64,000 nt of DNA from Chitinophaga pinensis (GCA_945901065.1 CAMDKI010000004.1:103247-167246); one strand, 5' to 3'; shown: positions 7,204 through 43,233, counted from the stretch's first letter. The notes: a model not told the origin generated them from the sequence alone. Numbers and translations: made by a program.

Positions 7204-7405
7204 AGTATCAAGTAGTGAGTATCAAGTATCAAGTATTTTACGATTTACGAGGTACGATTTACGATTGAAAGGCAAATTGAAATAAAAATTAACTACAATA
7301 GTCCCTCCTCACCCAAGGCGAGACAAGCTGTAAATCGTACTTCGTACTCAATTTTAGCGAAAGACATGATGTACTTGATACTTGATACTCACTACTTGCT
7401 ACTAA
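7204..7405. repeat. ~200-bp imperfect long inverted repeat built from heptamer arrays
   Basis: Left arm 7204..7266 is nine in-phase 7-mers (AGTATCA AGTAGTG AGTATCA AGTATCA AGTATTT TACGATT TACGAGG TACGATT TACGATT). Right arm 7330..7350 (GTAAATC GTACTTC GTACTCA) plus 7371..7405 (GTACTTG ATACTTG ATACTCA CTACTTG CTACTAA). Positions 7204..7235 and 7372..7403 are reverse complements with 1 mismatch in 32 nt. The centre carries a degenerate CTCACCCAAGGCGAGACAAGC element. Confidence 0.85.
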
Positions 7406-7464: not shown

Positions 7465-8166
7465 TTGCTTCGTTCAATAATCAAACCGTTTACCGTGGCA
7501 CAACCAATAATCCGGATTAACAACTTAAATAAGTCCTACCAAATGGGGCACAATAGCTTGCATGTGCTGAAGGGTGTAAATATGCAGGTTAACGAGGGTG
7601 AGATGGTATCCATCATGGGTTCGTCGGGCTCGGGCAAATCAACGCTATTGAACATATTGGGCATATTGGACCAATACGACTCTGGTGAATACTATTTGGG
7701 CGAGTATTTGGTTAAGAACTTATCGCAAGCCAAAGCGGCCAAATACCGCAGCATGCTGGTGGGGTTTGTTTTCCAATCGTTTAACTTGTTGAGTTTTAAA
7801 ACGGCTGCCGAAAACGTTGCCTTGCCGCTATACTACCAAAATGTAAGCCGTAAGCAACGCGACAAAATGGCGTTGGAATATTTGGAGAAAGTAGGCCTGC
7901 GCAATTGGGCCAACCATCTGCCTACAGAAATGAGCGGTGGCCAGCAACAGCGCGTAGCTATTGCCCGAGCCTTGATTAGCAATCCGAAAGTGATATTGGC
8001 CGATGAGCCAACAGGTGCATTGGATACCCAGACCAGCTACGAGGTAATGGAGCTTTTTAAAGCCTTACACCAAGAAGGGAAAACCATCGTAATTGTTACC
8101 CACGAAAACGACATAGCCGCCCTTACCGAAAGGGTTATCAGGCTCAAGGATGGGCAGATTGTTTAA
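7465..8166 (+). CDS. ABC transporter ATP-binding protein (LolD/MacB-type ATPase), no adjacent permease
   Basis: Walker [10 protein letters not shown], signature [15 protein letters not shown]-like ([15 protein letters not shown]), Walker [13 protein letters not shown]-loop VTHE. There is no in-frame ATG near the 5' end; the start is TTG 7465 (track) or GTG 7495. Confidence 0.9.
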
Positions 8167-8167
8167 A

Positions 8168-8283
8168 GTCCACGGTCAACGGACCACTGTCCACAGTTAA
8201 CAGAAAGTATTTTGTCCATACTTAATAAGACATTGCCTTAAAGCTTAATTTTTGCTGTGGACTGTCGACAGTTGACTGTGGAC
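8168..8283. repeat. inverted pair of GTCCACA-type heptamer arrays
   Basis: 8168..8202 reads GTCCACG GTCAACG GACCACT GTCCACA GTTAACA. 8255..8283 reads CTGTGGA CTGTCGA CAGTTGA CTGTGGA CC, roughly its reverse complement (about 24 of 29 by eye). The left array starts 2 nt after the ABC gene's TAA (8164..8166). Confidence 0.8.
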
Positions 8284-8423
8284 CATAAAAAAGAACGAGT
8301 GTTAGTAAGGGTTTGAGTGGTTCTAGTTATCAGTAGGGTTAATTTGGGGGTAAACAAATTATTAATTTTCAGCTACTTGGCTTAAATTTAGGAGCCCAAT
8401 TAATAACCAACCTGCTACCCCCA

Positions 8424-11400: not shown

Positions 11401-14240
11401 CATCAACTTGTACTGCTAATAATGGCACGGCTACGGCTATTAATACTGGTGGTACTAGTCCGTTTACCTATAGTTGGTCTCCGAGTGGTGGTAGTGCGGC
11501 TACCGCCAACAACTTGGCCCCAGGCCCATACACAGTGCAGGTAAACGATGGGAATGGATGCACAGCAACGGCTTCGGGCACAGTTACACAATCATCGGGT
11601 ACTTTGGCATTGAGCCTTACCAACCCCGTGAACCCTACTTGTGCTGGCAATAATGGCAGTATTACAGCTGGGTTGAGCGGCGGCACCGCGCCTTACACCG
11701 TAACCATTGATACAGGCGGCACCCCAATTGTGGTAAATGTGCCTTTTGCCATTAGCCAAACCATAAGCAACCTACCAGATGGCACCGTGAATGTTACGGT
11801 GGTTGATGCTCAAGGTTGCCAAGTGAGCAATTCGGCAACGTTGGCAGCACCTAACTGTTGCACGTTTACTGTATCAGCAGCACTTACGCAACCTACTTGT
11901 GGGCAAAGCAACGGTAGTATAGTGCTTACCGCTGCCAACGGCTCGGGTAACTACACCTACGCTTGGGCCAATGGCTCGGGCGCAGGCACCACAGCGAGCG
12001 GCATTGGTGCTGGCACTTATAGCGTAACCATTACCGATAATGGATTTGCGAACTGCTTTAAGGATACCACCTTTACCTTAAACTCAAACAGTAACTTAAG
12101 CCTTAGCCTTACCAACCCAGTAAACCCTACTTGTGCAGGGAATGACGGTAGCATAACTGCAACGCTCAGTGGCGGCACGGCCCCTTACACTGTAACTATT
12201 GACACCGGCGGTGCACCAATTGTGGTGAATGTGCCATTTGCCATTAGCCAAACCATAACCAACCTACCGGATGGCACAGTCAACGTAAGTGTGGTGGATG
12301 CGCAAGGTTGCCAAGCGAGCAATTCTGCCACGTTGGTTGCGCCAAACTGTTGCACGTTTACAGTATCGGCTGCACTTACCCAACCTACTTGTGCGCAGAG
12401 CAATGGTAGTATTGTTATTACACCGGCTAATGGTTCGGGCAACTACACTTATGTTTGGGCTAATGGTTCGGGTACCGGTAACACTGCCAATAACATTGGT
12501 GCGGGTGTTTACAATGTTACCATTACCGACAATGGCGTGGCCAACTGCTTTATTGATACTACATTTACCCTTACTTCAAACAGTTCATTGGCAATAAGCC
12601 TTACCAATCCTGTGAACCCAACTTGTGCGGGCAATGATGGTAGCTTAACTGTTGGGCTAAGTGGAGGCACTGCACCATACACCGTAACTATTGACACCGG
12701 AGGTACGCCATTTGTAATTAATGTACCTGTTGCTATATCGCAAACCCTTACCAACTTACCTGCAGGTACAGTGAACGTAACAGTAGCTGATGCTCAAGGT
12801 TGCCAAGCAAATAATACCGTAACATTAACTGCTCCAGCCAATTGCTGCTCTTTTAATATTTTGGCTGCTATTACCCAGCCAGCATGCGGGTTGAGTGATG
12901 GTAGCATAGTTATTACTCCGGCAAACGGCTCAGGGAACTATACTTACACTTGGGCCAATGGCTCAGGAACAGGCACAACGGCCAACAACCTAGCCGCTGG
13001 CAACTTTGCGGTAACCATTACCGACAATGGTTTTGCCAATTGCTTTATCGATACCTCATTTGCTTTAATCAATGCAAATGCACCAGCGATTGGGCTGGTC
13101 TCGCAAACCAATGTGGCATGCGCTGGAGATGCAACGGGTGCTATTACCGTCCAGGTTTCGGGTGGCACGGCGCCTTTTACAGTACTATGGAGCAATGGCG
13201 ATACCACGCTTGCCGTAAACGGTTTGGCCGATGGCGCTTATACGGTTTCGGTTACCGATGCCAATAGTTGTGCCTCAAATGCAACTTTTACCATTGCCGC
13301 GGGCACTGTGCTAGTATTGCAAACTATCATGACACCTATTGATTGCAACAACCCTAACGGCGGTAGCGCTGGTGTGGCCGTTACGGGTGGCACAGCACCA
13401 TACACCTATCTATGGAGCAATGCAGCTACTGCATCAACCCTAACGAATGTTACCGTTGGAACTTATACCGTGACTGTTACCGATGCGCAAGGGTGCGTGG
13501 CAGTTGATTCAGTTACTGTTACCGGCGACAGCATAGCTTCGTTTAGTCTTGGCCCTGATTTAACTATTTGTTTTGGCGATTCGTTAGTGTTAGGAACTGG
13601 CTTGGTTGGCACCGTATGGTCCACGGGCGATACGAGCGATTATTTGCTGGTAACTGATGCAGGGGTTTATATCGGAAGTATCTCCAATGGCAATTGCGCG
13701 AATAGTGACACCGTGAGTGTTTCAGTGGAGCAAATACCAAACGTTCCGCAATTGAATGTAAATGATACTATTGTTTGCGCAAGTGAAACCGTAATATTGC
13801 GGGTAGGCGATGAGGGTTATCTCTATGTTTGGTCAACGGGCGATACCGCGAGTCAAATTGTGGTGGATACACCAGGTATCTACATCGTTTCAGCCATAAA
13901 TGACTGTGGCGAAGTAAGCGCTGAGGCGTTGGTTACCGATGAAAACTGCGCTTGCCGCCTTTATTTGCCCAATGCTTTTTCTCCAAATGCCGATGGTGCG
14001 AACGATGTATTTAAAGCGTATAGCGTTTGTACTTACATTGAGGAATTTAACTTAACCGTCTTTGATAGATGGGGTGGGGTGGTATACAAATCGAACGACT
14101 TTATGGAGGTTTGGAACGGCACAAGTAAAGGCAAGGCATGCATACCGGGCGTATATGTTTATAGTTTGAGTTACCTTTCTCGCGAGAATGGTGTGCGCCA
14201 AATATATAGGCAGAAGGGCAGTGTTACTCTGTTGAGGTAG
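8424..14240 (+). CDS. giant cell-surface adhesin-like protein with beta-propeller (SBBP-type) repeats, SprB-type repeats and a T9SS type B (gliding-motility-associated) C-terminal sorting domain
   Basis: 1938 aa. It has a signal peptide (LLLLSLATLCFLTGLFYAQG) and SBBP-like motifs (DAAGNVYVIGG, DRNGNSYITRG, DTCGNVYVGSAD). Many ~75-aa units carry C-x-G/N-x-NGSATV-x-x-x-GGTAPYTY-x-W (SprB repeat pattern). The C-terminus YLPNAFSPNADGANDVFKAY...FDRWGGVVYKS...WNGT...GVYVYSL is the type B sorting-domain pattern. Confidence 0.9.
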   Translation: MRNYLLLLSLATLCFLTGLFYAQGLSLPIVSDKQTETDNKDRAAVNNVYESNETDPMLPVHDTMAGVTWSANMAPQYFVENLGQFNDRYEGAGSDIRFAIDGGGTQIFFKPNGVDYFFVERVKNPDRKKGDMTKPKKVSNSDLFGFVWQGANPAAEIVGKDLGMAYYTYAMPKRQNPINPTFDNVRGFGKITYEGIYEGIDVEYTMHPEGGMKYSLVVKPGADISQVKMAYPADRMLKIDESGKLLISTLYGDIVEHAPVTFYNGSTKELIASKFVLQGNVVSFELEDYDHSRGIVIDPWVQSPTLTSSNCIWECERDAAGNVYVIGGDAPMKLLKYNATGTLLWTYVTPWDATPSAPGESDGDWLGSLATDRNGNSYITRGSLAAIQKINTAGALQWSVAGTLFSSDEYWTIAFNCDQTKLVVGGTQGVGLNIKGALFDINASNGAIISYVIVGTNRPSILPGVFNDAMEVRSISSSRNGRYFFMTLDSVGSVNQNFSVCNNQPLFNESHGYKLGYKSEEYRPSTGNGPNCAIKANDKFVYTHGGNIVHKRDLNTGVILASAAIPGGISTVQFGFSQPGNNGIDIDTCGNVYVGSADRVIKYDANLNVISSVNLPFRAFDVAVTTGGEIIVCGGTGTSSSTTRTGYVQVLNMNACPQFTLICCDATICPAGPICDIAPPITLNAVTPGGVWSGPGITNTTTGQFTPSAAGPGVHRIIYTLPCGLDSTFITVNACANLTVCVQPNGDYTVSNGTGPYTWQRGTPFQNCTGCPLGNCIPFICAGFADTTWTTFSTNTTVTPPGTFPIRVTDAAGNRLRITSAAGIPPCTTCPNITTTITSQTNISCSQPTGSATVSANGGTAPYTYNWQPGNLNGAGQTGLGAGAYTVIATDAASCKDTLIVTITSSGSIPSVTVATTPTTCALANGSATANVTGGTAPFTYAWSPGGGSTQTITNRASGTYTVTVTGVGGCTATAQGTIATSSGFTTAVTTTPSTCTANNGTATAINTGGTSPFTYSWSPSGGSAATANNLAPGPYTVQVNDGNGCTATASGTVTQSSGTLALSLTNPVNPTCAGNNGSITAGLSGGTAPYTVTIDTGGTPIVVNVPFAISQTISNLPDGTVNVTVVDAQGCQVSNSATLAAPNCCTFTVSAALTQPTCGQSNGSIVLTAANGSGNYTYAWANGSGAGTTASGIGAGTYSVTITDNGFANCFKDTTFTLNSNSNLSLSLTNPVNPTCAGNDGSITATLSGGTAPYTVTIDTGGAPIVVNVPFAISQTITNLPDGTVNVSVVDAQGCQASNSATLVAPNCCTFTVSAALTQPTCAQSNGSIVITPANGSGNYTYVWANGSGTGNTANNIGAGVYNVTITDNGVANCFIDTTFTLTSNSSLAISLTNPVNPTCAGNDGSLTVGLSGGTAPYTVTIDTGGTPFVINVPVAISQTLTNLPAGTVNVTVADAQGCQANNTVTLTAPANCCSFNILAAITQPACGLSDGSIVITPANGSGNYTYTWANGSGTGTTANNLAAGNFAVTITDNGFANCFIDTSFALINANAPAIGLVSQTNVACAGDATGAITVQVSGGTAPFTVLWSNGDTTLAVNGLADGAYTVSVTDANSCASNATFTIAAGTVLVLQTIMTPIDCNNPNGGSAGVAVTGGTAPYTYLWSNAATASTLTNVTVGTYTVTVTDAQGCVAVDSVTVTGDSIASFSLGPDLTICFGDSLVLGTGLVGTVWSTGDTSDYLLVTDAGVYIGSISNGNCANSDTVSVSVEQIPNVPQLNVNDTIVCASETVILRVGDEGYLYVWSTGDTASQIVVDTPGIYIVSAINDCGEVSAEALVTDENCACRLYLPNAFSPNADGANDVFKAYSVCTYIEEFNLTVFDRWGGVVYKSNDFMEVWNGTSKGKACIPGVYVYSLSYLSRENGVRQIYRQKGSVTLLR
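11605..13080 (+). repeat. three tandem 492-nt (164-aa) near-identical repeat units inside the adhesin gene
   Basis: The LTNPVNPTCAGN(N/D)GS anchors start at nt 11617, 12109 and 12600/12601. Each unit reads LSLTNPVNPTCAGNDGSITA.LSGGTAPYTVTIDTGG.P.V.NVP.AISQT..NLP.GTVNV.V.DAQGCQ..N..TL.AP.CC.F...AA.TQP.C..S.GSIV.T.ANGSGNYTY.WANGSG.G.TA....AG...VTITDNG.ANCF.DT.F.L. Unit boundaries are arbitrary. Confidence 0.85.
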
Positions 14241-19698: not shown

Positions 19699-20004
19699 AT
19701 GGACTGTCCACCTAACATACCAGTGTTTCACAGGCGCATCTTTTGGGATGTTGATTTTGATACTTTGGATTATGATAAAAAGGCCAACTTTGTTATTGAG
19801 CGGGTATTTGAGCGGGGCGATGTGCCCGATATACGCAACTGCAGGCGCTACTATGGTGACGAGAAAATCCGTGAAGCTCTTACCAATGCCAAATGGCTCT
19901 CATTGCGCACCATCTACTTATCCTGTGCCGTATTGAGCAATGACCTAACCGACTACCGATGTTACATTACAGCACAATCGAACCCCGAACACTGGAGATA
20001 TTGA
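19699..20004 (+). CDS. small hypothetical protein in the antitoxin position upstream of an AbiEii-like gene
   Basis: 101 aa (…RRIFWDVDFDTLDYDKKANFVIERVFERGDVPDIRNCRRYYGDEKIREAL…). Its 3' end overlaps the next gene by 46 nt. It is not a recognisable AbiEi (too short, and I see no wHTH-plus-C-terminal-domain layout). Confidence 0.5.
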   Translation: MDCPPNIPVFHRRIFWDVDFDTLDYDKKANFVIERVFERGDVPDIRNCRRYYGDEKIREALTNAKWLSLRTIYLSCAVLSNDLTDYRCYITAQSNPEHWRY

Positions 20005-20582
20005 AAAAGTTGATGGCTATACCCGAGCTGGAGAACTTTTACTTGGTTGGAGGCACTGCCCTATCGTTATATTACGGACATCGGCTTTCTATCGATTTGG
20101 ATTTGTTCAGCACTAAAGATTTTCAACCAGAAGAGCTTGCCAAAATATTGGAAACTCGTTTTTCAGGTTTTGCATACACTATATCAGATAAAGTTGGCAT
20201 ATTTGGCTTTATTGAGGATGTGAAGGTTGATTTTGTAAAGCATCATTATTTTGAAACGATTAGCCCAGCATCAGTTTTTGATGGCATAAGGCTGCACAGT
20301 GTAAATGATATTGCTGCAATGAAGATTGCCGCTATTTTAAAACGGGGGGTAAAAAAAGACTTTTGGGACATAGCTGAAATCTTGCAACATATTAGTTTAT
20401 CTACGATTATTGACCTTTATCATCAAAAGTACCCTAGCCAACAACTGCTTATTTCCATTCCTCAAGCGTTAACATACTTTGATGATGCTGAAGAAAGTGC
20501 AATGCCAGTAAGCCTAAAATCGCAAGAGTGGGAAGGTATTAAACAAATAATCAAAGAAAGCGTGAAAGAATACTTGCAATAA
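19959..20582 (+). CDS. nucleotidyltransferase AbiEii/AbiGii toxin family protein
   Basis: 207 aa. FYLVGGTALSLYYGHRLSIDLDLF is the typical N-terminal nucleotidyltransferase motif (GG-x-A + H-R-x-S-x-D-x-D) of the DUF1814/AbiEii family. Confidence 0.75.
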   Translation: MLHYSTIEPRTLEILKKLMAIPELENFYLVGGTALSLYYGHRLSIDLDLFSTKDFQPEELAKILETRFSGFAYTISDKVGIFGFIEDVKVDFVKHHYFETISPASVFDGIRLHSVNDIAAMKIAAILKRGVKKDFWDIAEILQHISLSTIIDLYHQKYPSQQLLISIPQALTYFDDAEESAMPVSLKSQEWEGIKQIIKESVKEYLQ

Positions 20583-22245: not shown

Positions 22246-22368
22246 GGTGGCGAATATTATTTATCGGTTATTAGTTATTGGTGGGTAAGAATCGTCGGTG
22301 TTCAAAAAAATATCCGAACCACAAGCAATCAACCAATAACCAGTAAAACCAATAACCTAAATTAAAAG

Positions 22369-23771: not shown

Positions 23772-23796
23772 ATTAACTTGCCTCGCCTTGGGCGAA
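23772..23796 (-). repeat. inverted copy of the CTCGCC-CAA-GGCGAG / GCAAGCTAAT element
   Basis: The reverse complement of 23772..23806 reads CCAATCAACC TTCGCCCAAGGCGAGGCAAGTTAAT. The core differs at 1-2 positions from the groES-upstream unit. Confidence 0.75.
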
Positions 23797-23906
23797 GGTT
23801 GATTGGAAAGGCCAAAGGCCATTTTAAGCTCCTCCCCATTTTAGGGGGAGGTTGGGAGGGGGTAATGGTCGGGCGCTACATTTGCCTTTCTATTATTACC
23901 CTTGCC

Positions 23907-30359: not shown

Positions 30360-30489
30360 CGGATTTTCAATCCAAATGATGGAGCTACGGATTCGTAATT
30401 CGTTTAATTGCGGGCACATATTTCACTACTGGTGTTGCGGGCGGATTACAAATCCGCAGCTCGGTTGCGTCGGATTATAAATCCGACGC
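30360..30489. repeat. four GGATT-N-AATCC-type hairpins (two degenerate, two intact)
   Basis: CGGATTTTCAATCCA (30360..30374, degenerate), ACGGATTCGTAATTCGT (30387..30403, degenerate), GCGGATTACAAATCCGC (30441..30457) and GCGTCGGATTATAAATCCGACGC (30467..30489, 10-bp stem). Confidence 0.8.
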
Positions 30490-32383: not shown

Positions 32384-32401
32384 GTGGCAAAGATACTAAT
32401 A

Positions 32402-32739
32402 GCTTGCCTCGTTTCAAACGAGGGACCACAGTCCACCGTCCATGGTCGACAGAAAAAAGAATGCAAGTTGGATAGAGATTAAAAATTCAAAATTTAAAAT
32501 TCAAAATTAGGAATGAGCGTAGGTTATACCGCCGTTCAAAAACTTTTAACTTACTTTGTTTCTGTCAGTGACTAGTGAATAGTAACTAGCGACTAGATAT
32601 AAAAAAGACTCATTAAACATTTAAGCGCAGTGCTGATTTTTTTCGCTTCGAAATACACCTCCCTAACCCTCCTTCCTAGGAGGGAAGTGTTGTTGGGTAT
32701 TTTAAAGTCTTGATACTTGATACTCAATACTCAATACTG
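32402..32739. repeat. cluster of four different heptamer arrays plus two hairpin elements in one divergent intergenic region
   Basis: GCTTGCCTCGTTTCAAACGAGG hairpin (32402..32423). Four arrays: 32424..32451 (GACCACA GTCCACC GTCCATG GTCGACA), 32483..32510 (AAATTCA AAATTTA AAATTCA AAATTAG), 32566..32600 (CAGTGAC TAGTGAA TAGTAAC TAGCGAC TAGATAT) and 32709..32739 (CTTGATA CTTGATA CTCAATA CTCAATA CTG). Palindrome CCCTCCTTCCTAGGAGGGAAG around 32668..32690. Confidence 0.85.
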
Positions 32740-32744
32740 AAAAA

Positions 32745-35690: not shown

Positions 35691-35762
35691 CACCTCCTCA
35701 TCCCTTCCTTCGACCTCGTTTAAAACGAGGCTCAGGACAGGCTCTTTTTAGGAGGGAAAATG
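35691..35762. repeat. partial copy of the 43070..43220 element (47-nt shared core with CTCGTTT-N-AAACGAG hairpin)
   Basis: 35702..35748 (CCCTTCCTTCGACCTCGTTTAAAACGAGGCTCAGGACAGGCTCTTTT) versus 43081..43127 (CCCTTCCTTCGATCTCGTTTGAAACGAGACTCAGGACAGGCTCTTTT). There are 3 differences: one in the loop and two forming a compensatory T-A to C-G stem pair. Confidence 0.85.
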
Positions 35763-38929: not shown

Positions 38930-39732
38930 TGCTTACACCATTAAAGTCTTTCTTGCTACTAGCGTTTATTGCCTCGAGTTTGCAATGTATGCCGGTATTC
39001 GGTCAAATTGTTACCGACGATATTGCGGTTCCGCCACCAAGTAATATACCTGCCAAAAAGAATCGCAACAACGACAGACCTACCAAGCAATTGTTTTTGC
39101 TGCTCAATGCCGGTTTAGCTTCTCCGCTAGGTATTTTCGGTTCTACCAATATTCTAGAGGAAGATGCTGTTTTTGCCAAAACAGGCATAAACCTCAGCCT
39201 TAATGTTGGCCGAACCTTTAACCGTTATGTGGGGCTTACTGCTACAGGCGGGCTTATAGTGCAAACCAATAAAATGGCCCAGATTGTAGACAACTACAAT
39301 CGCTATGGCCCACCTGGCTCATATATATTGGCATACGACTACCCAGGTATGCGGTTTTATTATTTGGCAGGCGGCTTGTTGGTTACAGTGCCGGCTACTA
39401 ATCGGTTTTCTATTGATGTAAAGCTGCAAGGTGGCATGGCGCTGGGTGTAGATAGGGAGCTAACGCTGCAGATTGATAACGGACTTGGCACCATAATAGA
39501 AAAGTATGGCAAAGCCAGCGACATCGCTTTTCTGCCCGATTTGGGCTTAAACTTTAGGTTGTTGGTTACCGACAACTTTACTATGAATTTCTTTACCGAT
39601 TTTGTAATGGCCAACTTCAAATTTAAGGACGTAACCTACTACGAAAACGGCGTACCACTGGCTACCTACGACTACGACCTGCCCATGCGCAACCTCAATG
39701 TAGGCATAGGAGCGGGGTGGAGTTTTAAGTAG
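38929..39732 (+). CDS. hypothetical outer-membrane beta-barrel-like protein
   Basis: 267 aa. The start ATG overlaps the upstream TAA (TAATG). It has a signal peptide (LLLAFIASSLQCMPVFGQ), alternating beta-strand pattern and a C-terminal aromatic residue (…GAGWSFK). Confidence 0.55.
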   Translation: MLTPLKSFLLLAFIASSLQCMPVFGQIVTDDIAVPPPSNIPAKKNRNNDRPTKQLFLLLNAGLASPLGIFGSTNILEEDAVFAKTGINLSLNVGRTFNRYVGLTATGGLIVQTNKMAQIVDNYNRYGPPGSYILAYDYPGMRFYYLAGGLLVTVPATNRFSIDVKLQGGMALGVDRELTLQIDNGLGTIIEKYGKASDIAFLPDLGLNFRLLVTDNFTMNFFTDFVMANFKFKDVTYYENGVPLATYDYDLPMRNLNVGIGAGWSFK

Positions 39733-39772
39733 TCCACAGTCCACAGTCCACAGTCCACAGTCCACAGTCGAT
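39731..39772. repeat. AGTCCAC heptamer x5 (+1 degenerate) starting on the stop codon
   Basis: AGTCCAC AGTCCAC AGTCCAC AGTCCAC AGTCCAC AGTCGAT. The TAG stop of the upstream gene is at 39730..39732. Confidence 0.9.
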
Positions 39773-39812
39773 GGCGAGTAGCTTATAGCATATGGTTCGT
39801 TGTACCCCAAAA

Positions 39813-39900
39813 ACCCTCGCCCAAGGCGAGGCAAGCTAATACCCCTCGCCCAAGGCGAGGCAAGCTAATAACCCTCGCCCAAGGCGAGGCAAGCTAATAA
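39813..39900 (+). repeat. three tandem 28-30-nt units ACCCTCGCCCAAGGCGAGGCAAGCTAATA, each a 7-bp stem hairpin
   Basis: Units at 39813..39840, 39841..39870 and 39871..39900. Each has the stem CCTCGCC/GGCGAGG with a CAA loop. There are no unique spacers between units. Confidence 0.9.
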
Positions 39901-39925
39901 CCAATCAACCAATCAACCAATCAAC
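39901..39925. repeat. CCAATCAA octamer x3
   Basis: CCAATCAA CCAATCAA CCAATCAA C, directly following the third 30-nt unit. Confidence 0.85.
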
Positions 39926-39972
39926 TGCCACCTTTACAGCCCGGAACTGCAATTTTGGCGCATTATGCCAGT

Positions 39973-39988
39973 TGGCACAACTAATGCT
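39973..39988 (+). promoter_or_regulatory. sigma-54-like -24/-12 motif upstream of groES (speculative)
   Basis: TGGCAC AACTA ATGCT. GG and GC have the canonical 12-nt register of TGGCAC-N5-TTGC, and the -12 element ends 42 nt before the groES ATG. A TACCTTTA (near TAnnTTTG) box also lies at about 39999..40006. Confidence 0.25.
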
Positions 39989-40029
39989 ATAGGCAAAGTA
40001 CCTTTAAAACGATAAAAACATAAAACAAT

Positions 40030-40305
40030 ATGGCTGTTAACATTAAACCCCTTGCAGACCGCGTGCTGGTGAAAGCCGACGCCGCCGAAGAAACCACCAA
40101 GAGTGGCCTATTTATACCCGATACGGCTAAAGAAAAGCCAATGCGTGGCGTAATAGTAGCCGTAGGTGCGGGCAAAAAAGACGAACCAATGACCGTGAAA
40201 GTGGGCGACAAAGTATTGTATGGCAAATATGCTGGCACTGAGTTGACCGTAGAAGGAGAGGAGTTCTTGATTATGCGCGAAAGCGACATCTTCGCCATCC
40301 TTTAA
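40030..40305 (+). CDS. groES: co-chaperone GroES
   Basis: 91 aa: [48 protein letters not shown]…, the canonical Cpn10. Confidence 0.97.
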
Positions 40306-40308
40306 TTT

Positions 40309-40343
40309 GGTTACGGGTTCCGAGTTACGGGTTGCGAGTTTGC
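40309..40343. repeat. five in-phase degenerate heptamers (GGTTACG type)
   Basis: GGTTACG GGTTCCG AGTTACG GGTTGCG AGTTTGC, starting 4 nt after the groES TAA (40303..40305). Confidence 0.8.
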
Positions 40344-40362
40344 AATAAACCAACGACCAGTA

Positions 40363-40390
40363 ACCCTCGCCCAAGGCGAGGCAAGCTAAT

Positions 40391-40392
<2 letters not shown>
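40363..40392 (+). repeat. fourth copy of the ACCCTCGCCCAAGGCGAGGCAAGCTAATAA unit (groES-groEL spacer)
   Basis: Identical to the 39871..39900 unit by eye. Confidence 0.9.
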
Positions 40393-42097
<1,705 letters not shown>

Positions 42098-42135
42098 GCT
42101 ACATCGTCCGGCTTTAAAGCCTGATAATCATTTTA

Positions 42136-42177
42136 ACGCCCCCATTTCTTTTAGTAGAGATGGGGGCGTTTTTTTTG
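42136..42177 (+). terminator. intrinsic terminator of groESL
   Basis: Stem ACGCCCCCAT (42136..42145) / ATGGGGGCGT (42160..42169), followed by a T8 run. Confidence 0.85.
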
Positions 42178-42994: not shown

Positions 42995-43069
42995 ATGTAG
43001 CATCTGGCAAATACCAGGTAAACGAACTACTTGTTAATGCTTGTAAAGAGTGTCCCCTGCCCGCACTAA

Positions 43070-43220
43070 CCACCCCCAACCCCTTCCTTCGATCTCGTTT
43101 GAAACGAGACTCAGGACAGGCTCTTTTGCATCCGCTCAAAAAGGCCATTCGAAGCCTGCCTGCGGCAGGCAGGCTTCGCCGAGCCAGTGCAGCGCTGGCA
43201 AAAGGAGGGGTTGGGGGTGG
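43070..43220. mobile_element. 151-bp MITE-like non-coding element with perfect 15-bp terminal inverted repeats
   Basis: CCACCCCCAACCCCT (43070..43084) and AGGGGTTGGGGGTGG (43206..43220) are exact reverse complements. Inside are the hairpin TCTCGTTTGAAACGAGA (43093..43109) and the 27-nt palindrome GAAGCCTGCCTGCGGCAGGCAGGCTTC (43151..43177). There is no coding capacity, and the track ORFs across it read both strands of the palindrome. Confidence 0.6.
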
Positions 43221-43233
43221 TTGCACATAATTC

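Follow-up and report, generated by a model that had tools for sequence, protein, structure and literature searches.

REP, BIME and REPIN elements of Enterobacteria and Pseudomonas are short (20-40 nt), GC-rich extragenic palindromes that lie between genes and inside operons, are dispersed to unrelated loci and can form stable stem-loops in mRNA. Pneumococcal BOX elements are modular intergenic repeats with stable RNA folds, in which one module is present in strain-variable tandem number. Strain-variable intergenic arrays of heptanucleotides are known in Cyanobacteria, Beggiatoaceae and some Bacteroidetes, and these arrays (the cyanobacterial STRR, and the TAACTGA arrays of all three groups) have periods of 7-8, often lie beside start or stop codons, differ between strains in length and presence, and bring several heptamer families together in one intergenic region (PMC4679880). 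As for chaperone operons, mapped transcription starts with a sigma-54-type -24/-12 motif precede groES-groEL, dnaK, grpE-dnaJ, htpG, lon and clpB in Flavobacterium psychrophilum (PMC9723704).

Here we describe a 29-nt hairpin unit that occurs in several copies at the groES-groEL operon within a 64-kb stretch of Chitinophaga pinensis DNA (hereafter, the window). The unit has the features just listed for REP-type and BOX elements, and the arrays in which it is embedded have those listed for the STRR and TAACTGA arrays. An earlier, sequence-only reading of the window suggested that the copies might have a role at this heat-shock operon or might reflect the local density of a REP-like family. The best explanation, which we regard as probable, is that we are dealing with a REP-like hairpin repeat, small and restricted to the lineage, that has been amplified in hypervariable simple-sequence arrays, and not with a part of groESL control.

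Hairpin units and simple-sequence arrays in the window

The genes groES (Cpn10; 40030..40305, plus strand) and groEL (Cpn60; 40457..42097, plus strand) are separated by a 151-nt spacer, and the operon ends at a canonical intrinsic terminator (42135..42176, plus strand) with a 15-pair stem followed by a T run. This terminator shows that ordinary terminators are in use by the organism. Upstream of groES, the stop codon of the preceding gene is followed directly by 5.6 copies of the heptamer AGTCCAC (39731..39769, plus strand), and then by 42 nt, three hairpin units, 3.4 copies of the octamer AACCAATC (39899..39925, plus strand) in an array that embeds the units, the conserved promoter segment and groES. 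The tandem units thus stand 130-218 nt before the groES ATG, where they belong to the 3' region of the gene before it.

Tandem Repeats Finder resolved the units as 3.1 copies of a 29-nt period with 96% matches (39812..39902, plus strand; units at 39812-39840, 39841-39869 and 39870-39898), with the layout AACC-CTCGCC-CAA-GGCGAG-GCAAGCT-AAT and the consensus AACCCTCGCCCAAGGCGAGGCAAGCTAAT. Their hairpins lie at 39815-39831, 39844-39860 and 39873-39889. Each tandem unit is composed of a 22-nt core, CTCGCCCAAGGCGAGGCAAGCT (CTCGCC-CAA-GGCGAG-GCAAGCT), and one heptamer, AATAACC or AATACCC. The predicted fold of the unit has a 7-bp stem and a CAA triloop (-12.2 kcal/mol, z = -3.9). A fourth perfect copy (40362..40392, plus strand; hairpin 40365-40381) lies in the groES-groEL spacer, ends 64 nt before the groEL AUG, is likewise adjoined by an AACCAAT-type array, and equals the third upstream copy over 35 nt (40361-40395 = 39869-39903). 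Exact matches to the 26-mer CCTCGCCCAAGGCGAGGCAAGCTAAT start at 39815, 39844, 39873 and 40365, and a match with 2 mismatches is on the minus strand at 23772..23797, which gives 5 matches against 0.00 expected from 100 shuffles. The four GC-hairpin units at groES and groEL are therefore confirmed as real and non-random, and the sequence-only reading was right about the three head-to-tail copies before groES, the identical fourth copy between the two genes, and the GC-rich 7-bp stem and triloop of each.

Three diverged copies bring the total to seven in the 64 kb (4 perfect and 3 diverged), and every perfect copy is at groESL. The copy at 23772..23797, between the saccharopine dehydrogenase and DUF4139 genes, is decayed by its 2 mismatches and has GGTTGATT/TTATTAG arrays on both flanks. 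Another decayed copy, CTCACCCAAGGCGAGACAAGCT (7308..7329, plus strand), was also matched by the hairpin pattern search at 7307..7323 with 2 mismatches; flanked by the divergent valS and ABC-ATPase genes, it forms the centre of nested inverted heptamer arrays of the TTTACGA/TCGTAAA type. Both had already been reported in the earlier reading, which had also described AAT(A)AACC-type arrays following each copy; this held for the copies upstream of groES, in the spacer and at 23772, but not for the one at 7307. A variant absent from that reading, CCTCGTT-tga-AACGAGG-CAAGCTA (32400..32423, minus strand), sits between the holA and amino-acid permease genes, 17 nt upstream of the holA start. In this variant both loop-adjacent stem pairs are altered on both sides, from C-G to T-A, and the 7-bp stem is kept; the two double changes hint that the structure itself may matter.

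All copies in the window are intergenic, and they occur in both orientations and both 5' and 3' of genes, promoter regions included. The perfect copies and the copy at 23772 have the core preceded by AACC and followed by AATAAC; the copies at 7308 and 32400 sit in heptamer arrays other than the AACCAAT type. Simple-sequence arrays are a general feature of the window, which is about 88% coding and about 12% non-coding: of 27 arrays with a period of 7, 8 or 14, 25 are intergenic. The heptamers and octamers include AGTATCA, TTTACGA, GTCCACN, AACCAAT, AGTGACT and ATTCAAA, and whole intergenic regions are built from such arrays (7204..7400, 8167..8285, 22255..22357, 32420..32740 and 40308..40416). 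Period-7/8 arrays often form inverted pairs, which would fold into long hairpins. The frequency of inverted pairs sets the window arrays apart from the STRR and TAACTGA arrays, and so does the hairpin unit, in which a 22-nt core is interleaved with heptamers to give a 29-nt composite period.

The region at 40308..40416 (plus strand) is predicted to fold into a long imperfect hairpin whose 3' arm contains the unit; the arrays that build it are of the GGTTACGGG type (40310-40340) and the AACCAGTRACC type (40390-40417). The fold of the 150-nt spacer has a minimum free energy of -38 kcal/mol (z = -3.5). In the minimum free energy fold of the upstream region, an inverted repeat, GCTTATAGCAT/ATGCTATAGGC, brackets the array and the promoter; it was dismissed as chance and is not kept in L001, a relative described below.

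Distribution among relatives and in other genomes

The groESL loci of relatives were gathered by exact-protein look-up of GroES and GroEL homologues, and one more (L001) came from a pattern scan of species-representative genomes. Ten loci were compared, the window included, with GroEL identities from 100% down to 86%. The unit was present at three of the ten. L004, with 99.9% DNA identity to the window, has three units upstream of groES and one in the spacer, as the window does, and L001, with about 89% DNA identity, has five upstream and none in the spacer. Two of the five L001 copies are mutated: copy 2 has two tail changes, and copy 4 has two non-compensatory stem changes. No unit was found upstream or in the spacer of L010 and L011 (93-96% DNA identity, GroEL about 100%; L011 covers the spacer only), L012 (GroEL 95%), L013/L014 (93%), L017 (92%), L015 (91%), L019 (87%) or L016 (86%).

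Where the window has units, L010 and L011 have plain AACCAAT/GGTTATT arrays, and several of the more distant loci without the unit still have AACCAAT arrays at both sites. The neighbouring arrays vary as well. Compared with the window, L004 has one AGTCCAC unit fewer and L001 a much longer AGTCCAC array; the AACCAATC array is also longer in L001, and L010, L012 and L013 have it without hairpin units. The number of head-to-tail units thus ranges among close relatives from 3 (window and L004) to 5 (L001) and 0 (L010), which indicates gain, loss, expansion and contraction of the unit over the times that separate species and strains. Because both the window and the 89%-identical L001 have the array, either it has persisted at the groES site for some time or L010 has lost it. 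The earlier reading had pointed to the groESL upstream regions of related genomes as a check on a regulatory role, and in this comparison, whose outcome is decisive, the units were missing from most orthologous loci, even from the 93-96%-identical L010. As in simple-sequence (VNTR) loci, head-to-tail copies vary between relatives, and the arrays with periods that are not multiples of 3 are mostly non-coding.

At one of the compared loci, L017 (738..1033), groES is called as only 31 aa, with unrelated sequence before groEL; this is either a disrupted gene or a chimeric metagenome contig.

Away from these loci the unit is rare. An exact 21-mer was found in 3 of 185,579 species genomes (L001, L002 and L003), at one locus each, a count of exact matches outside which diverged copies fall. 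The match in L001 is at groES. L002 has a perfect core after an ABC-ATPase gene, and L003 has one 30 nt before an unannotated ORF. A 20-mer scan of JGI metagenomes returned 5 matches, one of which is a real family member (L008), with a perfect core between polysaccharide-synthesis and thioredoxin-like genes; the other four are unrelated sequences that share the 20-mer by chance. In L002, L003 and L008 the unit always lies within AACCAAT-type heptamer arrays, and the cores keep the AACC and AATAAC flanks, which were outside the search pattern. The identity of these three cores was not used as evidence of selection, because exact-match searches account for part of it and only the 7 nt outside the pattern count. 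The copies away from groESL are not associated with stress genes, their orientation and their placement with respect to genes follow no consistent pattern, and the window itself holds no classical heat-shock gene besides groESL.

One further observation concerns the array modules. Directly after the stop codon of the ABC-ATPase gene, GTCCACN arrays form an inverted pair in the window (8164..8281), and at the equivalent site of L002 (6757..6885), with flanks 92.5% identical, there are GGTTATT/AACCAAT arrays and a CCTCGCC unit. Between these conserved flanks, a whole array module has been replaced.

The groESL promoter and regulatory readings of the units

A sigma-54-type -24/-12 promoter, TTGGCACAACTAATGCTA, lies at 39972..39990 on the plus strand, about 85 nt downstream of the tandem array. 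Its -24 GG (39974-5) and -12 GC (39986-7) are at canonical sigma-54 spacing, and no other such match occurs in the window. The block TTGGCACAAC[T/A]AATGCTA stands 40-60 nt before the groES ATG in all loci compared and is invariant in a 7-sequence upstream alignment in which the surroundings diverge; the form in L019, TTGGCACGGAAAGTGCT, keeps TGGCAC-N5-GTGCT. The promoter is kept in 10/10 loci and the units in 3/10. A TGGCAC-N5-nTGC -24/-12 element directly upstream of groES-groEL is also the arrangement of the sigma-54 chaperone promoters of F. psychrophilum (motif SM4; PMC9723704), and here it is found in a Bacteroidota member without CIRCE, with a groES transcription start that is predicted from the sequence, at about 39999. 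The conserved promoter is likely the heat-shock control element of groESL. It adds comparative support for sigma-54-type promoters at groESL in this uncultured Chitinophagales clade.

The sequence-only reading had moved from the absence of CIRCE to a possible role for the hairpins, and the premise behind such a step is that a missing CIRCE implies an unknown regulator. CIRCE is indeed missing before groESL (TTAGCACTC-N9-GAGTGCTAA gave 0 matches with up to 3 mismatches), and the conserved -24/-12 promoter, as at the F. psychrophilum chaperone genes, accounts for its absence and answers that premise. A sigma-70 promoter scan of 39600..40500 gave no match. A Bacteroidetes sigma-A -7 box (TAnnTTTG), TACCTTTA, was noticed by eye at 40002 and rejected, being conserved in neither L001 nor L012. 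Recurring TGCCA and CTGCAA..TTG motifs precede the promoter in the window (39926..39990) and in L001, L010, L012, L013, L015, L016, L017 and L019, and these could be an activator site.

With a start near 39999, the three tandem units would fall outside the groES transcript, at about -99 to -186. Activator sites of sigma-54 promoters are usually inverted repeats about 80-200 bp upstream, and perfect 7-3-7 palindromes in tandem at this distance might accordingly be upstream sites for an enhancer-binding protein acting on the groESL promoter. We consider this very unlikely. The units are absent in L010, L012-L017 and L019, all of which keep the promoter, and the segment that is conserved beside the -24 element differs from the unit and is rich in TGCCA/CTGCAA. 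The fourth copy lies inside the operon and other copies are at unrelated genes. In L001, the one close relative among the species-representative genomes scanned, the exact 21-mer is restricted to groES, so the unit is not the shared operator of a regulon.

CIRCE/HrcA operators and ROSE/fourU thermometers resemble the unit as inverted repeats near a heat-shock operon, but the unit has no sequence match to them, is at the wrong position and is not conserved. The copies do adjoin a heat-shock operon that lacks CIRCE, which could suggest an RNA thermometer controlling the translation of groES or groEL. This reading has hardly any probability in view of the predicted folds. Unlike ROSE/fourU elements, the unit has a stem predicted to be far too stable to melt at growth temperatures, with a pair probability that is 0.99 at 42 C and does not fall below 0.97 at temperatures up to 70 C. 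From -20 to +6, the groEL region is predicted to be 0.85-0.87 unpaired across 20-50 C, independent of temperature, and the unit stem is not predicted to pair with the groEL start region. The spacer copy also stops well short of the groEL AUG, and the upstream copies precede the predicted transcription start.

A role at the RNA level is also unlikely. REP stem-loops act as RNA elements inside E. coli operons, for example at malE-malF, and the units could similarly shield the mRNA of the upstream gene at its 3' end, while a processing or stability barrier in the spacer could tune the groES:groEL ratio. The stem is very stable in each unit, transcription would necessarily include the spacer copy if groES and groEL form a single operon up to the 42135 terminator, and there is no plus-strand terminator between the upstream gene and the units. 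Predicted folds of the window, L001, L010, L013 and L015 share a long stem-loop immediately behind the groES stop codon despite differing sequences. However, the relatives make this stem-loop from GGTTATT/AATAACC arrays without the unit, so the unit itself is dispensable for it. Copies elsewhere are in both orientations and also in promoter regions, and copy 4 of L001 is decaying through its non-compensatory changes. On the favoured reading as a REP-like repeat, the units would affect expression only incidentally, the spacer copy by giving the groES-groEL transcript one more stem-loop, predicted to be very stable.

The spacer is unusually long in this clade (105-151 nt in the window, L001, L010, L012, L013 and L015), and in most members it opens with a stem-loop directly after the groES stop. 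The window spacer differs in sequence from those of its relatives and keeps the hairpin potential. In L016 and L019 the groES-groEL spacers are short and unstructured.

Other readings of the hairpins were also considered. No intrinsic terminator was found at the units: 39600..40500 held no plus-strand match, and the CAAGCTAAT that follows the units has no T run. Terminator-like matches in this interval were on the minus strand alone and no commoner than in shuffles. A CRISPR array was rejected, as the units abut directly and have no spacers. Rfam gave no match in the whole window at the gathering score; at E<=1, a search of 39700..40470 gave two sub-threshold chance matches, both on the opposite strand. 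A role of the unit in groESL control, as suggested in the sequence-only reading, is not supported: the units are absent at most loci, the tandem copies lie upstream of the promoter, the stem is predicted not to melt below 70 C or to pair with the groEL start region, and the unit is no shared operator. For heat-shock biology the units are of little consequence, as dispensable passengers of an operon whose control follows the sigma-54 pattern reported for Bacteroidota.

Nature and spread of the repeat

The unit is strain-variable, embedded in simple-sequence arrays and not conserved with groESL. Like REP and REPIN elements, it is an extragenic palindrome of 20-40 nt, with a 7-bp stem and triloop within 29 nt. 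REP palindromes carry a GTAG or CGTC tag at one end (PMC3733652), and a check of the unit found no GTAG, CTAC, CGTC or GACG. The unit also differs from REPINs in that its copies are direct and head-to-tail and do not form inverted doublets, and in that no RAYT gene is among the window ORFs. It is further set apart from REP by its heptamer arrays and by its very few exact copies per genome. This rarity by exact match (one locus per genome in 3/185,579 genomes, and one JGI copy) is unlike a typical high-copy REP family, with its tens to hundreds of copies per genome, and counts against the assignment. So do the confinement of all perfect copies in the window to groESL, the sharing of the array with the 89%-identical L001, the stem preserved in the variant at 32400 and the lack of a mobilising enzyme among about 46 window ORFs. 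From BOX it differs in its unrelated sequence, its much smaller unit and its phylum. The unit behaves like REP and BOX elements, yet is outside the GTAG/CGTC REP superfamilies. Of the earlier suggestions, the local density of a REP-like family came closest to the evidence; it has to be qualified in that the family is low-copy by exact match and without REP tags, and in that three of the four local copies are a tandem amplification inside a simple-sequence array.

For this REP-like repeat, the three upstream copies probably arose by slippage or unequal recombination of the 29-nt unit, made up of the core and one heptamer. The spacer copy probably came from a homologous array 0.5 kb away, by gene conversion or by copying over a short range, because the identity with the third upstream copy over 35 nt includes array sequence. 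The core could disperse to new arrays through recombination among them or through a trans-acting enzyme.

The last possibility leads to a different account, in which the units are recognition hairpins of active single-strand transposition (RAYT or IS200/IS605-like) that insert after AACC in AATAACC arrays, with a spread that is enzymatic rather than recombinational. The perfect copies, in the window and in other genomes, and the copy at 23772 have identical junctions, AACC | core | AA(T/C)AA, and these recur at six independent sites in four genomes. Non-homologous loci have the core in perfectly conserved form, and a whole array module is swapped at an equivalent intergenic position between the window and L002. 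On the other side, a Pfam search of about 46 window ORFs found no transposase or RAYT, Y1/HUH types included. There is no GTAG/CGTC tag (PMC3733652) and no inverted doublet, the copy number is very low by exact match, and exact-match ascertainment explains part of the apparent conservation of the core. We hold this account of active transposition to be improbable.

As an equally speculative extension, to which we give little credence, the 22-nt hairpin core may be the recognition structure of an undescribed mobilisation or recombination system of uncultured Chitinophagales that inserts specifically after AACC in AATAACC-type heptamer arrays. Paired inverted arrays, whether they contain the hairpin or not, would then replace one another as cassettes at fixed positions between genes. 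If true, cassettes after stop codons or in the groES-groEL spacer might act as transcript-end or insulator modules, and simple-sequence arrays and REP-like hairpins would be joined in one system.

Taken as a REP-like repeat in variable arrays, the locus is a clean case of a hairpin repeat amplified within heptamer arrays, with 0, 3 and 5 copies among near relatives, and the copy number could serve as a strain marker. Because the intergenic regions are rich in repeats, many similar suspicious hairpins near an interesting gene are to be expected in this lineage.

Other repeats were noticed in the window. A second hairpin family, CGGATT-N3-4-AATCCG, has 10 copies, among them four pairs exactly 29 nt apart with related linkers (23911/23940, 30442/30471, 42208/42237 and 45740/45769) and further copies such as those at 30360 and 42941; by its layout this is a putative REP-like two-hairpin element. 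A palindromic element of about 180 nt (~43047..43228), ccacccccaacccc ... CTCGTTTGAAACGAG-ACTCAGGACAGGCTC ... ggggttgggggtgg, has a partial copy at 35700..35750, and L010 and L001 lack it in the orthologous intergenic region. A MITE-type insertion is suggested, with an inner hairpin similar to the variant unit at 32400.

Among the coding sequences, a DUF6922 gene is followed by an overlapping AbiEii nucleotidyltransferase toxin gene (19699..20582), a pair of the type IV toxin-antitoxin-like kind. The window encodes type IX secretion domains, and a 1,938-aa SprB-repeat/CHU_C protein, predicted to be secreted via the type IX system, contains a coding tandem repeat of 492 nt (11613..13061, 2.9 copies, 75% matches).
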